Program-made: the position numbers and the translations under genes
NCBI GenBank assembly: GCA_051531975.1
Contig: JAOPTT010000002.1
Location: 601,968-665,967, forward strand
Direction of reading: 5' to 3'
Length of the DNA: 64,000 nt
Source: Spirochaetaceae bacterium
GTDB taxonomy: Bacteria > Spirochaetota > Spirochaetia > DSM-2461
Notes under the pieces: generated by a model
What the model was told of the DNA's origin: nothing
Database searches by the model: none
What the model saw: the letters and a program-made list of their open reading frames with translations, nothing else
In this document: piece by piece, positions 1-51,629 of the stretch
Numbering within the stretch: the stretch's first letter is position 1
Layout: each line of letters begins with the position of its first letter

Positions 1-67
1 TTACGATAATAATTTTACCCTTTTTAAAGTCTTCTAATATATCTTCTACTTTTTCAAAGTCCTTCAT
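1..67 (-). CDS. ribBA: Bifunctional DHBP synthase/GTP cyclohydrolase II, N-terminal fragment (runs off window)
   Basis: Manual translation from ATG at 67: MKDFEKVEDILEDFKKGKIIIV, typical RibB N-terminus; starts immediately after the riboflavin synthase stop. Confidence 0.75.
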   Translation of the reverse strand, partial: MKDFEKVEDILEDFKKGKIIIV

Positions 68-68
68 T

Positions 69-692
69 TTAATACCCCCACCCTAAAAGTTTTTCTTTTG
101 TTAAACCTACTGTTTGTTTTTCTACAACTGTTTTTACTAAAATATCTGGCTCTATATTTACCAAGTCCCCTACCTTTAACAGGTTTACAGTTGTATTTGC
201 TAATGTATGTGGGATTATATTTATAATAATTACTAGCTGCCTTATTTCAGCGATAGTTAAACTTAAACCATCAACTGTTACAGACCCCTCATTTACCATG
301 TAATTATTTAATTCTGGTGATATTTTGATAGACAAGAAGGTATTTTTATTTACTTTTCTTATGTTCTTAATTACACCAGTTTCTTGAACATGCCCTTGTA
401 CAAAATGACCACCAAATGGCTTATTCATTGTTAATGCTCTTTCAAGATTCACCTTTTTAAATGGCTTCAATTTGTTTAAATTGGTTTTATTTAGGCTTTC
501 TTGCAAAATATTAACAGTAAAACTATTAGTATCTATGGCTACTACAGTTTGGCAAACACCATTTATAGAGATTGAATCACCTAGTACTGTATTTTCTAAA
601 ACGACCTTTGCTCTAATTTGTAACTTTTTGGAATTTCTGCTACCAGAAATAGATAAAACAGCTCCAACCTCTTCAATTATTCCTGTAAACAT
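69..692 (-). CDS. ribE: Riboflavin synthase (alpha chain)
   Basis: MFTGIIEEVG N-terminus, GDSISINGVCQTV, VNLERAL, GGHFVQGHV motifs; rib operon context. Confidence 0.97.
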   Translation of the reverse strand: MFTGIIEEVGAVLSISGSRNSKKLQIRAKVVLENTVLGDSISINGVCQTVVAIDTNSFTVNILQESLNKTNLNKLKPFKKVNLERALTMNKPFGGHFVQGHVQETGVIKNIRKVNKNTFLSIKISPELNNYMVNEGSVTVDGLSLTIAEIRQLVIIINIIPHTLANTTVNLLKVGDLVNIEPDILVKTVVEKQTVGLTKEKLLGWGY

Positions 693-1756
693 AACTCCTC
701 CCTATAACCATTAAAAACCATATGGTTATCTAGAATCTCAAAACTTGGTGATTTAAACTTTATACTATCTTTAGGGTGATTAATAGAAAGAGAACCCACA
801 GGAGATAGACCATTGCCCAAAAGTTTAGGGGCTGTATAAACTGTTATTTGATCCCATAAACCTGCCTCTAAAAATTGAGTAATTAGATTTGAACCACCTT
901 CTACAAATAGTGAGTTAATTCCAATGAGTTTTAATTCATCTATAATGTCTTTAATTTTAAAGGTTGATCCTTTAAGTTTTAGGAAAGAACCTCTATATCT
1001 GGCTTTATGAGATTCAGAAACCTCTTCTGAGCAGATAATTACTGGATTTTTATCAAATATCTTTAAGTTTGCCGGTGATTTTAGTAAAGGATCAATAATT
1101 ATAGGCCTTGGAGATGGTAAATTATCATACCTAACATCAAGAGTCGGATTATCTAACTCCAAGGTTCTTCTTCCTACGATAATTCCATCACAACAGGATC
1201 TATGGAAATGACTGTTTTTCCTACACTCTTCACTGGATATCCATTTAGAAACACCATCAGATGTAGCAATCTGCCCATCCAATGTCTGTGCCCACTTAAT
1301 GTGTACATAAGGTCTACCAAGCTTCATGACAGTGTTAAAACCACGGTTTAGTTCCAGTGCTAACCTTTGTTCTACTCCAACCAAAACTTCTATGCCATTA
1401 GATTCTAATAATGCGAGTCCAGAACCTGAAACATTTGGGTTTAAATCGACTTGGGAAACTACAACACGTTTAATACCGGCTTTAATAATGGCATCACAAC
1501 AGGGAGGATTGTTTTTACCCTTGTAGAACTTAGAACATGGTTCTAGGTTGCAATAAAGAGTACTACCTACCGTTGATTCGATACAGGATTCTATAGCATT
1601 AATTTCAGCATGTTTGCCTCTATAATACTCATGATAACCCTGTCCAATAATTTCTTCATTTTTAACAATGACTGCACCAACTAAGGGGTTTGGAGATACT
1701 TTTCCTAAACCACCCCGGGCGAGGGATATCGCCCTTTTCATAAAATAATTATCCAA
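677..1756 (-). CDS. ribD: Bifunctional diaminohydroxyphosphoribosylaminopyrimidine deaminase/reductase
   Basis: PNPLVGAVIV, HAE, LEPC..PPC Zn-deaminase motifs; KWAQTLDG and VEGG reductase motifs; TTG start with AGGAG SD. Confidence 0.97.
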   Translation of the reverse strand: MDNYFMKRAISLARGGLGKVSPNPLVGAVIVKNEEIIGQGYHEYYRGKHAEINAIESCIESTVGSTLYCNLEPCSKFYKGKNNPPCCDAIIKAGIKRVVVSQVDLNPNVSGSGLALLESNGIEVLVGVEQRLALELNRGFNTVMKLGRPYVHIKWAQTLDGQIATSDGVSKWISSEECRKNSHFHRSCCDGIIVGRRTLELDNPTLDVRYDNLPSPRPIIIDPLLKSPANLKIFDKNPVIICSEEVSESHKARYRGSFLKLKGSTFKIKDIIDELKLIGINSLFVEGGSNLITQFLEAGLWDQITVYTAPKLLGNGLSPVGSLSINHPKDSIKFKSPSFEILDNHMVFNGYREELCLQE

Positions 1757-1814
1757 TAAGGATCTCCTAAATTATAAGGGCGTGACAAAAAGAATTGAGA
1801 TTTGTTTTTTATAA

Positions 1815-1943
1815 CATTTTCTTCCATCCGGACTGTACCGTTGGTATTGGAATTTCACCAAATCAGTCCAAGAGTAAACCCTTGGAGTCGTGGACTATAA
1901 CCACCAGTTGGGAATTGCTTACGCTCACCCGACCCTGAAAATT
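1815..1943 (-). promoter_or_regulatory. FMN riboswitch (RFN element)
   Basis: Minus strand reads UUUUCAGGGUCGGGUGA...AAUUCCCAACUGGUGGUUAUAGUCCACGA...GAUUUGGUGAAAUUCCAAUACCAACGGUACAGUCCGGAUGGAAGAAAA, matching the RFN consensus, directly upstream of ribD. Confidence 0.95.
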
Positions 1944-1949
1944 GTATTC

Positions 1950-1979
1950 ATCTTAATTGCAAATGAATTAGGATGTCAA
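1950..1979 (-). promoter_or_regulatory. Sigma70-type promoter of the rib operon
   Basis: TTGACA-18 nt-TAAGAT just upstream of the riboswitch P1. Confidence 0.6.
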
Positions 1980-2056
1980 GTAATTTTTATATTGTATAAG
2001 TTATATAATTAGAGGATGGACCTAGGAATTTAATAGAGAATTCAAACAGAAATTTA

Positions 2057-2087
2057 AAATGGCTCCGATTGAATACCGGAGCCATTT
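2057..2087 (-). terminator. Intrinsic terminator downstream of lipoprotein gene
   Basis: Perfect 11-bp inverted repeat AAATGGCTCCG/CGGAGCCATTT with T-rich tail on the minus strand. Confidence 0.7.
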
Positions 2088-2161
2088 AATGCAAACTGCT
2101 TAGAAAAGAGTATCCACAATCTAGGATTAGTTCATTAAAGCAGAATTCTTAAATAGATAAA

Positions 2162-2908
2162 TTAAATAGTTGGAGCCAAAGTCTGCAACATATTTTGGTA
2201 ATTTATATTACCATTGTTTAAATCAAAAACATACCAATAAATATTTGTATAATCTCCGTAATTTGGCGGAGTAAATGATTCAACAAATCCATATTGATCA
2301 TATACTGTAACTAATGCATCTGAGTATGGGAAATTTTCATCTTGGCTATAATTATATACATAATATTTGTATGTAATACCTGCTAAGCCATTTAAAGTAA
2401 TTGTTTCTGGACCATACTGATATGAATCACTTCTATTTAGAGTAGATGAACCACCTGCTGTAAATAAAATATTTGCATCTAAATCAGTTGGATTATCACC
2501 CCAAGTTAATACAATACGATACTCTCCATAACCTAAATAAGGATTTCCTATTATTTCATTATCAGAAATATATGTTGTATTATATTCAGTAATTTCTACT
2601 TCAATAGAGACAAAGTCATGATTATATGATGAAAAATCTAATGTTCTATAACCAGGTGGTAACTCAATGTAAAAAGAACCATCCCAATCACTAGTGGTTG
2701 AATAACTAGTCATTTCATAATCACTAATAGTTACCCCAGATATACCCTCACCTGTAACAGCATCGTACACTGTTCCACTTGCATAACCTATTTCTTCGTA
2801 ATAATCATCACCACCACCATCATCACCTTCTATCAATTCTAATAAGCTATCACAACTAGTCATTAACAAAAATGTAGATAATATTAATATTATTATTTTT
2901 TTACTCAT
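2162..2908 (-). CDS. Acidic lipoprotein with carboxypeptidase-regulatory-like Ig domain and YfaP/DUF2135-like C-terminal domain
   Basis: Lipobox LMTSC; SGTVYDAVTGEGISGVTI...DGSFYIELPPG; YRIVLTWGDNPTDLD...GPETITL; AAGGAG SD. Confidence 0.7.
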   Translation of the reverse strand: MSKKIIILILSTFLLMTSCDSLLELIEGDDGGGDDYYEEIGYASGTVYDAVTGEGISGVTISDYEMTSYSTTSDWDGSFYIELPPGYRTLDFSSYNHDFVSIEVEITEYNTTYISDNEIIGNPYLGYGEYRIVLTWGDNPTDLDANILFTAGGSSTLNRSDSYQYGPETITLNGLAGITYKYYVYNYSQDENFPYSDALVTVYDQYGFVESFTPPNYGDYTNIYWYVFDLNNGNINYQNMLQTLAPTI

Positions 2909-3129
2909 TTATAACTCCTTTTTATACTTAACTAAATTTCCAAGCAAAAAAGACTAATATAACTTTTTGTTTAAGAAGAAAACCTAATTAAATATTTTCT
3001 TATATTTAAAACTTTTTTAATCTCACCTAATAATATTTCAATACTATTTTATTCTCTTCACTTCTATTATTAACTTTAGTATTGCATAGCTTGTTGAACA
3101 AATAGATAGAACGGCTTTTAGAATGAAAC

Positions 3130-3347
3130 TAGTATACACAGAGCCATAAAGAGAACACCTGCGCTATATCGTGAATAATTTCACTATTAATCCCACGTAG
3201 GAGATTATCTTTATATTATTATGCAACTAATTTTATTTTAAATTAGGTGGTTTGTCCTCGTTATTCAAAATAAATAACCCCCTCATAATTAAAATTAATT
3301 ATAAACTTCTTACTTATAACTATATGATCCAAAGTTGAATAACACAA
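3130..3347 (-). ncRNA. Putative small RNA, copy 1 of a two-copy family, coordinates include its promoter
   Basis: Homologous to 51069-51544; 36-nt identical core (3188-3223 = 51136-51171); TTGTGT-17-TATAGT promoter; hairpins that pair best on the minus strand via G.U. Confidence 0.6.
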
Positions 3348-3490
3348 TGATTCAATCTTAGAAATGGAAAGAAAAGACTTATTATTTCGAAAGATATAAT
3401 ATAAATACCACAGAAAAAGATCATTATAAGTTATCAGGGATCTCTGTCTAAGTATCAGGTGTAATTGTATTCCTCATATATAAGTCAAAG

Positions 3491-3994
3491 TTAATTTCTT
3501 GTTAACTTAATAATCTCGTTACTATGTTTTGGGTAAGATTTAATTAATTCTTCCCTAGAAAACAGTTCAAAATCTTCAAAGTCAAATCCAAAACTTACCA
3601 TACATCCAACTAGAGAATAACCTTTACCACTTTTAACATAACTACCAAATATAGTCCCTGCTGGTACAAGGACTTGAGGACATTCCCCTTTATCAATATC
3701 AACCCCAAGGGTTACAGATATTAGAGACCCATCTATATTAATCATAGAGATAATAAGTGGTTCTCCATCGTGGAAATACCAAATTTCATCAGATTTTAAT
3801 CTATGAAAATTAGAGACTTCCCTGTCTTTTATAAGGAAATATATACTTGTAGATAAGGGACGAGTACCACTAGTATCAAGCCCTATAAAGCTATTATCTA
3901 TATTGTGATCTGATTTATAAAATAGAGAGAAGTAACCACCCTCAGGATGTTCTTCCATATTTAATTTTTTTATCCAATAATTATTATCTTTCAT
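3491..3994 (-). CDS. Cupin domain protein (DUF985/Cupin_5 family)
   Basis: HPEGGYF, STSIYFL, FHRLKSDEIWYFHDG, LVGCMVSFGFDFEDF motifs. Confidence 0.9.
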   Translation of the reverse strand: MKDNNYWIKKLNMEEHPEGGYFSLFYKSDHNIDNSFIGLDTSGTRPLSTSIYFLIKDREVSNFHRLKSDEIWYFHDGEPLIISMINIDGSLISVTLGVDIDKGECPQVLVPAGTIFGSYVKSGKGYSLVGCMVSFGFDFEDFELFSREELIKSYPKHSNEIIKLTRN

Positions 3995-3996
3995 AA

Positions 3997-5463
3997 TTAT
4001 AATTCAAGTTTATTTGCAATTTCATTTAATTCTTCAGATGATCGTGCATTTTTATTTGTCTCTTCAACTAACCCTTGTAGTGCATTTGTTATCTGGTTTA
4101 TACCTTCAGATTGTTCTTTTATTGAATCTGTTATTTCATGGGAAATAGATTTAAGGTTTTTAGCATTTTCAAGAATCGTTCCAGTAGCTTTGGCCTGTTC
4201 ACTTGCTGCGGAATCAATGGAATTAACCATATTATCAACACTATTAATTGTATCTACAATGTTATTAATTGCATCAAGAGATTCATTAATATTATTTATA
4301 TTTTGTTCTGCTTTAGTATGACTGTCGTCTGACAACTCTTTTGTTTCCACAACATCTATTTTTATCTCTTTAATAATTTGATCAATTCTTTTAGATGATG
4401 CCTGTGCACTTTCTGCTAATTTTCCTATTTCGTTTGCTACAACACTAAATCCTTTTCCTGACTCTCCTGCATGAGCAGCCTCAATGGCGGCATTCATAGA
4501 TAATAGATTTGTTTGAGCCGAAACGCTATTAATTACTTTTAGAATTTCATCAACTTTCTGTGTTTTTTCATTTAATGAGTTTATTTTATTAGAAATATGT
4601 TCCAAGCTCTCATTTATACCAGAAATAGAATGTAAAGTATCTTTTATTTTTCCTTCTCCTATCCTTGCAACATTAACATTCTCCCTAGATAATACTGAGG
4701 CTTTAGATGAATTCTGGGAAACAGACTCTATACTTGCACTCATCTCTTCAAGAGCAGTAACAGTATCCTCAATAACATTAAATTGTTTTGTAGTATTGTT
4801 ACTTATGCTGCTTAAGTTTTGAGAAAATTGAACTGATGTTGCTGAGAGTTCTTCAGTAGCTGAAGCTTCGAGCTCAATAGTCTCCTTTAAATCTATTGAA
4901 GACTTCTTTAGTTGAGTAACAGCTTTATCCAATCTGGATTTTATTGTTACATCTGAAACAATTTCTATATGCCCAATTTTTTTTGTTTTATCTTTTCTAT
5001 GATAGAGGTAATTAGTATCAACCTGAAAGTTCATATCAAGCCCTTCATTAGTAAAATAGGATCTTGGATCTCCGTTTCTAAGCATCATTACACCACATTT
5101 TGGAGTTTCACATATATCAGCTCCCCAGCGACTGCATTGTTGTCCTACTATTTCATCTCTCTCAACACCTATAATATCTTTTACTGGTTTATTTATAAAT
5201 GTCCAGTTCATATCTATATCTGTAACTGATATTGGATTAGGTATAGAATCTAATAATTGTCCATACCAATCATCAAGATCATAATATGATTTTATCAATA
5301 TATAAATAGTTAAAGCTACAAGTATTATTATTACTGGTATAGAGAAAATAATAACTCCTCCAAGAATAGATTTAAGAATTGTATACGATACTAAATCAAA
5401 TAATGTTAAAGTAGATATGGATATTAAGAGTATAGTTACTAATTTTTTATTTTTCATAAACAT
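3997..5463 (-). CDS. Methyl-accepting chemotaxis protein with two TM helices and a Cys-rich PAS domain
   Basis: [34 protein letters not shown] signalling hairpin; PAS with [14 protein letters not shown]; true start may be ATG 5457. Confidence 0.92.
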
Positions 5464-5553
5464 TCCTTTAATATTTTATAATTAATTATTATATAGAATT
5501 ATTCCATTTACAAATATTTTATTGAGGAAATCTAATTTCGTTAGTTAATACGA

Positions 5554-7842
5554 TTATTTACTTTTTAAAATCTTTTTGATTAATTTGTTAATCTCATAAT
5601 CCATGAAGGGCTTTTTAATAAAACCTGCTAGCCCCATTTTTCTTAGATCATTTATATTTTCGTCCTTAGTATAGCCTGACGAAATTATGACTTTACAGTT
5701 TTCATCAATCATCTTCATCTTCATATATGTTTCACTTCCACTCATATCAGGCATTATCATATCCATAATGACTAAGTCAATATTTCCATACTGCTGCTTA
5801 AAAAGTGTCAAACATTCCATTCCATTCTTTGCTAATAACACCTTATATCCCATCTCTTCAAGCATATCTTTTACAGTTATCCTGATTATTTCTTCATCAT
5901 CTACTAATAATATGATACCTGACCCAGTTACAATAATTGATTCATTTTTTATTAAGATTGCTTTTTTTTCTGAACAGGGAAGTTGAATTGTAAATGTAGT
6001 TCCTATTCCAACCTCACTTCTCACAAATATTGAACCATGATGCCCGAGTATTGTCCCATAAACTGTAGATAACCCAAGCCCAGTGCCTTTCCCTTGTTCC
6101 TTAGTTGTAAAAAATGGATCAAATATTTTTTTTAAATTTTCATATTTTATACCACAACCTGTATCACTAATTTCAATTTCAATATAATTACCTGGTTTGA
6201 TCTTAAATATACTGGATTCACAATATAATTTATCTAATTGCACCTGTTTTGTTCCAAAGATAATTTCACCACCATCAGGCATCGCATGACTAGCATTTAT
6301 TCCTAGATTTAGTAGAGAACTCTGTAAAAAAGAAGAATTTGCTTCTATAAAATGAGGTTTTGAGTTTTTAATAAGTGATATTGTAATTTTTTTATCTAGT
6401 GTGCTTTTTAAAATCTCAATAGTGTTTTCTATAATATTATGAATATCTATTATTTCAAAAGTAAATTTCTCTTTCCTACCTAGTGTTAACAACTGAGAGG
6501 TTAAATCTGCAGCCCTTATAGTAGATTGAAGTATTAACTCTACACACTTAATTCCCTTTTTGTCCAAACCTCTATCTTTTGATAACAATACATTCCCAGC
6601 TGCAGCTATTCCACCAAGCATATTGTTAAAATCATGGGCGATACCCCCAGCAAGTTGCCCTATTGCATCCATTTTACTACTTTGAAATATTTGTTCTTCT
6701 AATATTATACGTTTCGTAATATCGGTTGATATACCGGATAAGGCATAAGTTTCACCCGAACTATTTTTGAGGGGGAATTTAACTGAAATATAGGTGTGCT
6801 CTCCATCTTTCAATTTAGCAGTTTCTTCAAACTCAAGAAGACAATCAGATTCTAATACATTACGATCATTGTCCTGATAGTATTTAGCAATCTCTTCAGG
6901 CATTATTTCGTAATCTGTTTTCCCATAAGCTTCTTTATCTGAAATATTGAAAGCTCGTTCAAACATTCTGTTAACAAATTGATAACGTCCTTCTAGATCT
7001 TTTATGAATATTATTGATGAAGTATTATTCAGTAAATCACGCTGTTGTTGCTGACTCTCTCCCAATGCCTCTTCTGCAATTTTACGCTCAATAATTTCAT
7101 GCTTTGTTGTCTCAAACAACTGTTTTGCTGAAGATGTATCTTTAGAAATCGTAAACTGCCGCATATTATGTCTATTTATATCATTCTTATTTCTTAACTG
7201 GTTTTCTGCAGGATCCTGAACAGCACGTTTTGTTTTTATATTTACTTCTGAATATTTTTTTAACTCATAAATAGATTCATCTAATTTTACTTTCGCAGTA
7301 ATATCTGATACTAATTCTAAGTGCCCTATCTTATTTTTTTTTAAATCATATAGATAGGTTGTATCAACTTGATAATTCTTATCAATGCCCTCATTAACAA
7401 AATAAGAGGTCCCTTCATCTTTTCGTAATAGACAAATGCCACATCTTTCAGTATTACAAATGTCGGCATTCCAGTTAGAACATTGTAATCCAATGGCATC
7501 TTCCCGTGTTCTGCCTATTATATCTTTTACAGAACGGTTAATAAAAGTCCAGTTCATATCTAAATCTGTTATTGACATCGGTAAATAAACAAAATCTAAA
7601 ATTTGTTCATACCAGTTATTTAATTCTTTAAAGGAATTTGATGTCTTTAATACAATAATAACCATATTAATTGAAACTAGTGGTAGTGAAACTAGTAAAA
7701 TGATAAAAGGATTATATTTTGTGACGATTATCAAAATAAAGTCTAAAATAAATATAGCTACCAAAAAAAATAATCCAATAATTAATTGAACAATCATATT
7801 CTTTGTTAACTTTTTATACATATTTATTCCTCTATAAATCAT
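5554..7842 (-). CDS. Hybrid sensor histidine kinase (TM-PAS-PAS-HisKA-HATPase-REC)
   Basis: GQLAGGIAHDFNN H-box, NLGINASHAM N-box, DTGCG, FFTTKEQGKGTGLGL, C-terminal receiver LLVDDE...MDMIMP. Confidence 0.93.
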   Translation of the reverse strand: MIYRGINMYKKLTKNMIVQLIIGLFFLVAIFILDFILIIVTKYNPFIILLVSLPLVSINMVIIVLKTSNSFKELNNWYEQILDFVYLPMSITDLDMNWTFINRSVKDIIGRTREDAIGLQCSNWNADICNTERCGICLLRKDEGTSYFVNEGIDKNYQVDTTYLYDLKKNKIGHLELVSDITAKVKLDESIYELKKYSEVNIKTKRAVQDPAENQLRNKNDINRHNMRQFTISKDTSSAKQLFETTKHEIIERKIAEEALGESQQQQRDLLNNTSSIIFIKDLEGRYQFVNRMFERAFNISDKEAYGKTDYEIMPEEIAKYYQDNDRNVLESDCLLEFEETAKLKDGEHTYISVKFPLKNSSGETYALSGISTDITKRIILEEQIFQSSKMDAIGQLAGGIAHDFNNMLGGIAAAGNVLLSKDRGLDKKGIKCVELILQSTIRAADLTSQLLTLGRKEKFTFEIIDIHNIIENTIEILKSTLDKKITISLIKNSKPHFIEANSSFLQSSLLNLGINASHAMPDGGEIIFGTKQVQLDKLYCESSIFKIKPGNYIEIEISDTGCGIKYENLKKIFDPFFTTKEQGKGTGLGLSTVYGTILGHHGSIFVRSEVGIGTTFTIQLPCSEKKAILIKNESIIVTGSGIILLVDDEEIIRITVKDMLEEMGYKVLLAKNGMECLTLFKQQYGNIDLVIMDMIMPDMSGSETYMKMKMIDENCKVIISSGYTKDENINDLRKMGLAGFIKKPFMDYEINKLIKKILKSK

Positions 7843-8003
7843 GAATATTTAGAACTGTTATTTAAATTATACTCATATTCATTTCAAAAGATAGGAATAT
7901 CTATTATATAAGCGTTTACATGGACTTGAACAAAAGTTAATACAATACACATTTCTCCTGCAGTCACATCAAAAACTGCATTGTACAGTGTTTCAAAGAA
8001 ATT

Positions 8004-51054: not shown

Positions 51055-51068
51055 TATAATTTTTTAGT

Positions 51069-51544
51069 AAAAAAAAAGCACAGAGCCTTTAAAAGACTAT
51101 CTGTGCTTACTACTGTGAGTGTTTATATCTCACTATAATCCCACGTAGGAGATTATCTTTATATTATTATGTAACTAACTTTTTTTTTCAATTAGGTGGT
51201 TCACCCTCATTATTCAATAATACAGCCCCCTCATAATCAGAATTTACTTCTAACTTACTAACTAACTTTATTACTAACTAACTAACTTAATTACTAACTA
51301 TTTTTAAAACTAACTTAAAAACTAACTAACTTAAAAAACTAACTAACTAACTTAAAAAACTAACTAACTTAAAAAACTAACTAACTTAAAAAACTAACTA
51401 ACTTAAAAACTAACTAGCGCTATAACTAACTTACAAACTAACTTACAAACTAACTTACAAACTAACTTACAAACTAACTTACAAACTAACAAACTTACTA
51501 ACTAACCTACTTATAACTATAAGCTCCAATATTAAATAGCGCAA
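51069..51544 (-). ncRNA. Putative small RNA, copy 2, with a 5' tandem-repeat expansion; coordinates include promoter and terminator
   Basis: TTGCGC-17-TATAGT promoter (51516-51544); conserved core shared with 3130-3347; GCACAGA/UCUGUGC hairpin plus U9 terminator; no downstream gene on this strand. Confidence 0.65.
51248..51507. repeat. Low-complexity tandem array of CTAA(C) units (UUAG on the minus strand)
   Basis: About five ACTAACTAACTTAAAAA-type units (from 51321), five exact AACTAACTTACA 12-mers (51424-51483), about 28 CTAA motifs in total. Confidence 0.95.
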
Positions 51545-51629
51545 TGTTTTTCTCATTAAATTGTAAAGAAAATAAAATAACACTTCGATTTCTTTAATAT
51601 TTGAAGTGCTAAAATAATAACAGTAATCA

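Follow-up and report, generated by a model that had tools for sequence, protein, structure and literature searches.

Two intergenic loci in a 64,000-nt stretch of a spirochaete genome (here called the window) appear to encode members of an undescribed family of small RNAs (sRNAs), new in itself and absent from Rfam 15, that is a candidate for a known kind, the dual-function sRNA. On this reading, which we hold with a little better than even confidence, each RNA would combine the message for a micro-peptide with a structured domain that has a role of its own. Comparison across genera establishes homology among the members, an RNA structure with covariation, coding-like conservation in a short reading frame, and a restricted distribution. 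No description of this RNA was found in the open literature.

Two copies in one genome

Copy 1 runs from about 3312 to 3130 and copy 2 from about 51509 to 51069, both on the minus strand of an AT-rich window within a 5.46-Mb genome (29 contigs, 98.5% complete, 31.5% G+C). Both are intergenic, as neither strand has an open reading frame (ORF) of at least 40 aa that overlaps 3125-3350 or 51067-51545. In minus-strand orientation they align colinearly over about 190 nt and share an identical 36-nt core (3188-3223 and 51136-51171), which bears out the description in an earlier note on this DNA of two intergenic regions with about 200 nt of colinear similarity around such a core. A whole-genome BLAST search with copy 1, of the kind that the note had suggested for counting paralogues, returned copy 2 as the sole credible match (E 6.9e-31, 86% identity, query 5-123). 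We rejected the next-best match, on contig C13 (E 0.0096), as a third copy because it shows none of the element's features on reading. With no further credible copy in the 5.46-Mb genome, the similarity is real, and the element is present in two copies and not as a dispersed repeat. The claim that no mobile element is involved also holds: no inverted repeats were found flanking either copy, and with just two genome copies the element was rejected as a MITE or insertion-sequence end. In a public DNA run that contains this stretch, contigs end and restart exactly at the shared core (window 3188-3217), as is expected of a two-copy repeat in de Bruijn assembly. A metatranscriptome of 12 million letters from the same sample gave a single, unrelated piece over window 1-8000, at 6620-6654, which counts neither for nor against expression.

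The two copies arose by duplication within their own lineage: GAGGGGG, the TTG starts and the 36-nt core are common to both and are absent from the genomes G001, G002 and G003. The greater proposed length of copy 2, 440 nt against about 185 nt for copy 1, is explained by a 270-nt tandem repeat between its promoter and the conserved body (Table 1). The homologue in G002 carries a (TTAG)n run at the same place of the leader (L073, from about 1640 to its end, which is the contig end); two species have thus undergone repeat expansion at the same point of the leader.

Table 1. Features of the two copies in the window, and the sites in genus g3 where a FliK-like gene follows the RNA (by locus)
Feature	Position	Strand	Details
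Copy 1 promoter	3319..3347	-	-35 TTGTGT 3347-3342, 17-nt spacer, -10 TATAGT 3324-3319; predicted start ~3312
Copy 1 Shine-Dalgarno-like GAGGGGG	3278..3284	-	9 nt ahead of TTG start
Copy 1 micro-ORF	3233..3268	-	TTG start, 11 codons + stop, M/L-N-N-E-D-K-P-P-N-L-K; aligns codon for codon with homologue sORFs
Copy 1 hairpin 1 UAAUCUC-CUACGU-GGGAUUA	3188..3207	-	within 36-nt core 3188-3223
Copy 1 hairpin 2 GUGAA-AUUA-UUCAC	3171..3184	-	
Copy 1 end stem GCGCAGG...UCUGUGU	3136..3164	-	three G.U pairs, no U tract; degenerate terminator
Copy 2 promoter	51516..51544	-	-35 TTGCGC 51544-51539, 17 nt, -10 TATAGT 51521-51516; predicted start ~51509
Copy 2 leader tandem repeat	51250..51519	-	270 nt; units of 4, 16 and 17 nt, CTAA/TTAG type
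Copy 2 Shine-Dalgarno-like GAGGGGG	51226..51232	-	
Copy 2 micro-ORF	51188..51217	-	TTG start, 9 codons + stop, M/L-N-N-E-G-E-P-P-N; fits sORF pattern search
Copy 2 hairpin 1	51136..51155	-	
Copy 2 hairpin 2 GUGAG-9 nt-CUCAC	51115..51133	-	
Copy 2 intrinsic terminator	51069..51106	-	stem GCACAGA...UCUGUGC 51106-51078 + U9 51077-51069
g3 sites where a FliK-like gene follows the U tract	L075 1589-1618; L076 1477-1501; L077 1468-1501; L092 1592-1608		

Both minus-strand promoters proposed in the earlier note are present as described, and the homologues have the same arrangement, TTGCnn, 17 nt and TATATT, at the same distance as in the window copies. A consensus scan lists neither window promoter, the -35 hexamers matching TTGACA at just three of six positions, and it lists neither end stem of the window copies as a terminator. 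In the AT-rich stretch around copy 1 the promoter scan found 10 sites where 5.1 were expected. One near-consensus promoter-like site, TAGACA-16-TATAAT (11 of 12 positions; 3423-3450, minus strand), lies after the cupin gene, some 100 nt ahead of the promoter of copy 1, and could by its position give rise to a longer copy 1 transcript.

Copy 2 keeps both the consensus peptide M-N-N-E-G-E-P-P-N and a good terminator. The peptide of copy 1 departs from the consensus by two changes, Gly5Asp and Glu6Lys, and the absence of a U-tail that had been claimed for this copy is confirmed. Copy 1 thus appears to have lost its terminator, which would leave its 3' end undefined. Its peptide changes, its G.U-rich stem and its missing U tract suggest that it may read through towards the lipoprotein gene, or that it is decaying.

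Homologues in three genera of one spirochaete family

The element had been put down as belonging to no known RNA class, and comparison with Rfam 15 agrees. In the window the FMN riboswitch alone reaches the gathering score of its covariance model, and no model does so at either copy; with the threshold relaxed to E <= 10, the matches at both loci stay at chance level (10-18 bits), and across 18 homologue loci the best match at the element has 30.5 bits against a gathering score of 100. The FMN riboswitch (1812-1946, minus strand; 93.5 bits against a gathering score of 66.2) is an ordinary leader of a riboflavin operon, immediately followed by a ribD-like gene (677-1756) and by a gene with a lumazine-binding domain that resembles riboflavin synthase (69-692).

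Among 60 relatives, BLAST found one true homologue apart from this genome (G000), in the congeneric G003. Hairpin 1 is unchanged there, hairpin 2 reads GUGAGA/UCUCAC and a strong terminator is followed by eight U; this homologue fixes the strand of the element. Matches in G022 and G055, 25-29 nt long and without flanking similarity, were rejected. A scan for the exact hairpin 1 core (GATAATCTCCT-N4-GGGATTA) gave 17 loci in genome contigs and 40 in metagenomes, of which one, L026 from a Spirochaetales MAG, has flanking similarity and equals the G003 locus (L011) over the printed stretch; the other 56 have none and were dismissed as chance matches.

We describe the distribution by means of a covariance model of the 94-nt 3' module, built from the G003 sequence with a structure that we specified and iterated twice to give the model R3. 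The first model recovered both window copies (E 3.8e-9 and 6e-5), and its first-round matches at G014 L082 and G001 L084 were rejected as homologues. At E <= 0.01, R3 finds matches in 18 of 38 genomes from the spirochaete family to which this one belongs, in three of six genera: g1 (4/4, including this genome), g3 (4/4) and g4 (10/11). At the same threshold g2 (0/14), g5 (0/4) and g6 (0/1) gave no match, with the limit that incomplete genomes cannot show absence. A search widened to the order took in the same 38 genomes and yielded nothing further. The 24 R3 matches in the family comprise 20 full homologues with a short ORF (sORF) upstream, one match cut by a contig start and three that were rejected, two as plain terminators after long ORFs and one as an antisense match (G011b). 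Over all searches, the model matches rejected for lacking the sORF are those in G015b, G003b, G138 and G124, each of which comes directly after a long ORF.

In a class sample of 151 genomes, R3 found a credible homologue in none of the 145 non-family genomes, incomplete ones again being unable to show absence; two weak matches there (E 0.001 and 0.008) are terminators behind coding sequence, have no upstream features and were rejected. Within the reach of these searches, the family thus appears restricted to three genera from a single spirochaete family. The earlier description of a two-copy family is correct inside this genome and too narrow for the family overall, which has 20 members in 18 genomes and three genera. 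Two g4 genomes (G011 L085 1402-1585; G024 L099 1-86) have an additional copy that is more divergent and differs in hairpin 1, indicating that paralogy recurs in the family, and G011 has one gene of each of the two peptide types described below.

A 3' module with covariation

The hairpins proposed from the window, UAAUCUC/GGGAUUA, GUGAA/UUCAC in one copy with GUGAG/CUCAC in the other, and the end stem, are all present as described. The accompanying claim of compensatory, RNA-type variation is not significant for the two copies and one relative (one compensatory pair; 164 of 500 shuffles as good), and becomes significant with 12-21 sequences. With 12, changes on both sides are found in 19 of 24 pairs and 92.8% of cells are paired; with 21 rows, namely the 20 homologues and the antisense row, compensation is seen in 21 of 24 pairs and 92.7% of cells are paired. 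In neither case was any of 500 shuffles as good, and in slid controls of the 21 rows, in which the 3' partner was moved by 1-3 columns, 34-54% were paired. All eight pairs of hairpin 1 and all six of hairpin 2 have compensatory changes in the 21 rows.

These alignments were fitted to the model and hence lean towards its structure. On an independent full-length MAFFT alignment, RNAalifold again predicted both hairpin 1 and the terminator, and 11 of the 19 pairs show compensation; MAFFT misaligns hairpin 2, so the support for that hairpin comes from the model-based alignment only.

A conserved micro-ORF upstream of the module

The family had been called non-coding, a label not supported by the sequences of its members: every copy has a Shine-Dalgarno (SD) sequence and a short frame at a fixed place, and 18 of 20 have an ATG or TTG start and a conserved N-terminus. 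When the 200 nt upstream of each 3' module are laid out, the order of parts is common to all genera. The SD sequence (AAGGAG or GAGGAGG in relatives, GAGGGGG in the window) lies 5-14 nt upstream of the start codon, which is ATG in 14 homologues, TTG in four and non-canonical in two (CTG or ATT, in G002 and G003). The micro-ORF is 8-18 codons long and only its first 8-9 residues are conserved; past codon 9, sequence, length and stop position all vary. The start codon stands 43-56 nt, mostly 49-53, from the 3' module, and the stop codon falls anywhere from 25 nt before the module to 9 nt inside it.

Two types of N-terminus can be distinguished. Twelve homologues, both window copies included, are of a Pro-Pro type (M-N-N/K-E-G/S-E-P-P) and six, all of them in g4, are of a Pro-Thr type (M-x-D/E-E-S-S-P-T-I); Pro at codon 7 and Glu at codon 4 are each found in 18 of 20. 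Summed over codons 2-9, the column entropy amounts to 5.84, 5.39 and 10.22 for the first, second and third codon position, and in the Pro-Pro type to 3.30, 1.87 and 8.82. The Pro-Pro codons themselves vary at the third base only (CCA/CCG; CCA/CCT/CCC). This third-position periodicity indicates that selection acts at the level of the peptide and not of an RNA helix.

Nine of the 38 family genomes each contain a single match to a degenerate sORF pattern, in every case at an R3 locus and with no control matches, indicating that micro-ORF and 3' module form one unit. Elsewhere in the phylum the pattern occurred in 3 of 400 genomes, each time inside an open frame of 319-834 codons, and these matches were rejected. 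We also rejected a type I toxin-antitoxin system, which needs a membrane-spanning hydrophobic toxin and an antisense RNA, since the peptides here have 8-18 aa and an acidic N-terminus.

Possible targets and protein partners of the RNA part

The anti-SD-like CUCCU that had been pointed out in the core is present; it is part of the hairpin 1 stem, covering 5' arm and loop and not a linker, and pairs with ribosome-binding sites only generically. Across the family the CU-rich strand varies (AUCUCC, AUCUUU, GUCUC), and we found no conserved single-stranded seed in the homologues, the CU-rich motif lying mostly in the hairpin 1 stem and the loop sequence being variable. Against crudely called translation-start windows the 36-nt core has a mean pairing energy of -9.82 kcal/mol, only marginally better than the -9.26 inside genes, and it reaches -14 or below in 490 start windows compared with 312 within-gene windows, of 4788. 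None of the 4788 start regions stands out as a target, as the best value, -25.3, is within the range of ten shuffled cores (-20.8 to -27.3).

No gene for Hfq or ProQ was found in this 98.5%-complete genome; CsrA is encoded. A role as a CsrA sponge was rejected, judging by eye only, because GGA motifs are few (2-4) and inconsistently placed. Protein binding by the 3' domain is as good a guess as base pairing with ribosome-binding sites in the manner of the streptococcal csRNAs.

A proposed message and RNA domain in one transcript

We propose that the element is a small, independently transcribed gene with a sigma-70-type promoter that would give a transcript of about 185 nt. From its 5' end this transcript would carry a stem-loop (in most relatives), a strong SD sequence, the micro-ORF, and two hairpins followed by an intrinsic terminator. 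The micro-ORF would be translated into a micro-peptide or a regulatory nascent peptide, and the 3' module would have its own role at the RNA level, in which the CU-rich arm of hairpin 1 may pair with purine-rich ribosome-binding regions, or in which the module may bind protein. Transcription, translation and the activity of both parts are what we infer. Dual function is favoured by the strong peptide signal in 18 of 20 homologues, by the retention of the 3' module in G002 and G003, whose sORF looks decayed, and by the fact that the 3' module is also the most conserved part between the window copies.

The SD sequence, the start codon and the coding-type conservation would also suit a plain micro-protein gene, whose peptide would be the sole effector and whose 3' hairpins would serve as stabiliser and terminator of a mini-mRNA. 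The constant company of sORF and 3' module fits such a gene, as does the lack of a stand-out RNA target and of a conserved single-stranded seed. We nevertheless consider it unlikely, because the sequences of hairpin 2 and of the terminator stem are conserved beyond the needs of pairing; the part GCACAG/CUGUGC of the latter is nearly invariant, and 3 of the 10 terminator pairs never vary in 21 rows. Moreover, G002 and G003 keep a high-scoring 3' module (74.8 and 82.6 bits) despite non-canonical starts and the loss of Pro-Pro, and between the window copies hairpin 1 is unchanged, although the peptides have two different residues and unequal lengths. The RNA part, with 36 identical bases across hairpin 1, is the better-preserved part in this genome.

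Gene neighbourhood

The gene neighbourhood is kept within genera and differs between them. Copy 1 has a cupin (DUF985) gene upstream and a CarboxypepD_reg-domain lipoprotein gene 217 nt downstream, and copy 2 has a sugar-kinase gene upstream and a convergent DUF6172 gene downstream. Upstream of the RNA gene stands a divergent ABC substrate-binding gene in g3 and a TauE-family gene in the Pro-Pro type of g4, while the Pro-Thr type of g4 has a gene of about 205 aa and a MYG1-family gene downstream. A search of the downstream genes with NCBIfam yielded no names. The downstream gene is convergent at 5 of the 20 loci (copy 2, G001, G003, G015, G011b), which, together with a context conserved only within genera, fits a free-standing, vertically inherited gene and not the leader of one operon.

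A different arrangement is found in g3. In all four genomes a FliK-like gene of 255-265 aa, with a Flg_hook domain in three of four, follows on the same strand 16-35 nt after the U tract (Table 1). This distance is too short to accommodate a separate promoter, so that the FliK-like gene may depend on read-through. Both this arrangement and the weakened terminator of copy 1, which points at the lipoprotein gene, would suit a cis-acting leader or attenuator, in which translation of the short ORF, perhaps stalling at Glu-Pro-Pro, would set the formation of the terminator that follows it and so control the downstream gene. For the family as a whole we judge such a device improbable: no conserved alternative (antiterminator) helix is predicted, either by RNAalifold or in 20 single folds, the downstream genes are unrelated between genera and convergent at the five loci named above, the Pro-Thr type lacks Pro-Pro, and the stop codon holds no fixed position relative to the module. 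The genus g3 is the exception that keeps the attenuator idea alive there.

A related idea, to which we give a similarly low probability, is that the conserved eight-residue N-terminus (M-N-N-E-G-E-P-P or the Ser-Pro-Thr variant) would act as a nascent-chain sensor and not as a product, with ribosome pausing, for example through a need for EF-P or for a supply of prolyl-tRNA, deciding the stability or activity of the 3' RNA domain. The near-fixed distance from start to hairpin and the free-floating stop fit a device in which just the first 8-9 codons matter.

The 5' leader and the start region

A 5' stem-loop, GUUC-N3-5-GAAC, can form just after the predicted start in 16 of 20 homologues, with loops that include UUCG, GCAA and GUAA; it is lost in both window copies and in G002 and G003. 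Four g4 homologues of the Pro-Pro type (L080, L079, L081 and L093, about 1402-1460 in locus coordinates) have a leader predicted to pair with the SD sequence and the AUG, the 5' end UGUUCAUAA pairing with UUAUGAAUA (start codon) and CAAAAUUCU with AGGAGUUUUG (SD). All 18 pairs form in these four RNAs, and the probability of being unpaired is 0.01-0.07, compared with about 0.5 with a shuffled leader. According to the predicted folds, the 5' GUUC of these four RNAs could have two alternative partners, the local GAAC and the GAAU within AUG-AAU.

Sequestration of the start region by the leader was rejected as a general feature, being perfect in the four g4 homologues only and absent in the window, with sequences too invariant for a covariation test. 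An RNA thermometer was rejected as well: the window copies are unsequestered (0.42-0.51 unpaired), and the four g4 homologues are sequestered throughout 15 to 45 C in the calculation. A long-range pairing between the sORF start region and the core, seen in the single fold of copy 2, is not conserved across homologues and was likewise set aside.

The pairing of the leader with SD and AUG in the four g4 homologues could be taken to mean that the RNA is purely non-coding, its SD- and AUG-like bases belonging to an RNA structure or to a protein site (for example GGA for CsrA) and never being translated. The absence of canonical starts in G002 and G003 and the presence of CsrA in the genome are compatible with such an RNA, which is nonetheless even less probable than an attenuator, because no predicted helix explains the three-base periodicity and the strictly synonymous variation of the Pro codons, and because sequestration is seen in 4 of 20 homologues only and in neither window copy. 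A repeat, the remnant of a mobile element or similarity by chance, as two copies in unrelated contexts and the contig breaks at the shared core might suggest, is highly improbable given two copies in 5.46 Mb, the lack of terminal inverted repeats, conserved syntenic positions within genera, and the presence of both covariation and coding-type conservation.

Relation to known systems

The dual-function sRNAs described in PMC12310071 include Spot 42/SpfP (15 aa), SR1/SR1P, SgrS/SgrT and AzuCR/AzuC. Like the predicted transcripts of the present family, they are presented there as promoter-to-terminator transcripts of 100-230 nt that join an SD-preceded small ORF to a structured RNA. The peptides covered in that account reach down to 15 aa (PMC12310071), whereas those predicted here are shorter, at 9-18 aa with only 8-9 conserved residues. 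Further differences are that the family has no sequence or Rfam relationship to these sRNAs, that neither a pairing seed nor a target was found here, and that Hfq and ProQ were not detected in the host.

In layout the family resembles rnTrpL/peTrpL of Sinorhizobium meliloti, described as an sRNA that derives from an attenuator and whose leader peptide, of 14 aa, is active in trans as well (PMC12310071; see also PMC6614838, PMC7298713). The two have in common, as far as these sources describe rnTrpL, that hairpins and an intrinsic terminator come after a tiny ORF, that the RNA is small (about 110-190 nt) and that peptide and RNA may both be functional. In the same accounts rnTrpL itself precedes trpE(G), with Trp codons in tandem and with alternative attenuator helices. 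In contrast, the spirochaete family has no consistent downstream gene, no run of regulatory codons besides Pro-Pro and no predicted antiterminator.

Streptococci are not known to rely on Hfq for their csRNAs. These are described in PMC3091779 as non-coding RNAs with a CiaR-activated promoter and an unpaired anti-SD/anti-AUG sequence between two stem-loops; the resemblance lies in several paralogous sRNAs per genome, lengths of 51-202 nt, hairpins, a terminator and a sequence complementary to the SD. In the spirochaete family, by contrast, most of the CU-rich motif is buried in the stem of hairpin 1 and there is a conserved sORF; the hosts also belong to another phylum. No CiaR box (TTTAAG-N5-TTTAAG, at most two mismatches) was found at 3325-3360 or 51522-51560, the window as a whole having 25 matches where 29.1 are expected by chance. 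By analogy, the family would work most like the dual-function sRNAs and is closest to rnTrpL in layout, and it appears to be a member of neither, nor of the csRNAs.

Implications

We know of almost no characterised regulatory RNAs in free-living spirochaetes. A family of 20 members with strong covariation and a defined promoter-to-terminator layout, in a genome showing neither Hfq nor ProQ, offers an entry point to post-transcriptional control and to micro-peptides in this phylum, and its alignment is ready as a seed for an RNA-family database. The 8-9 conserved residues would make its micro-ORF one of the shortest conserved bacterial coding units, and the case illustrates how a conserved micro-ORF can go unnoticed in an element taken for non-coding until different genera are compared. 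If the nascent-chain sensor, improbable as we rate it, were true, the RNA would be a free-standing 'orphan attenuator', a riboregulator that reports translational status in spirochaetes lacking Hfq.
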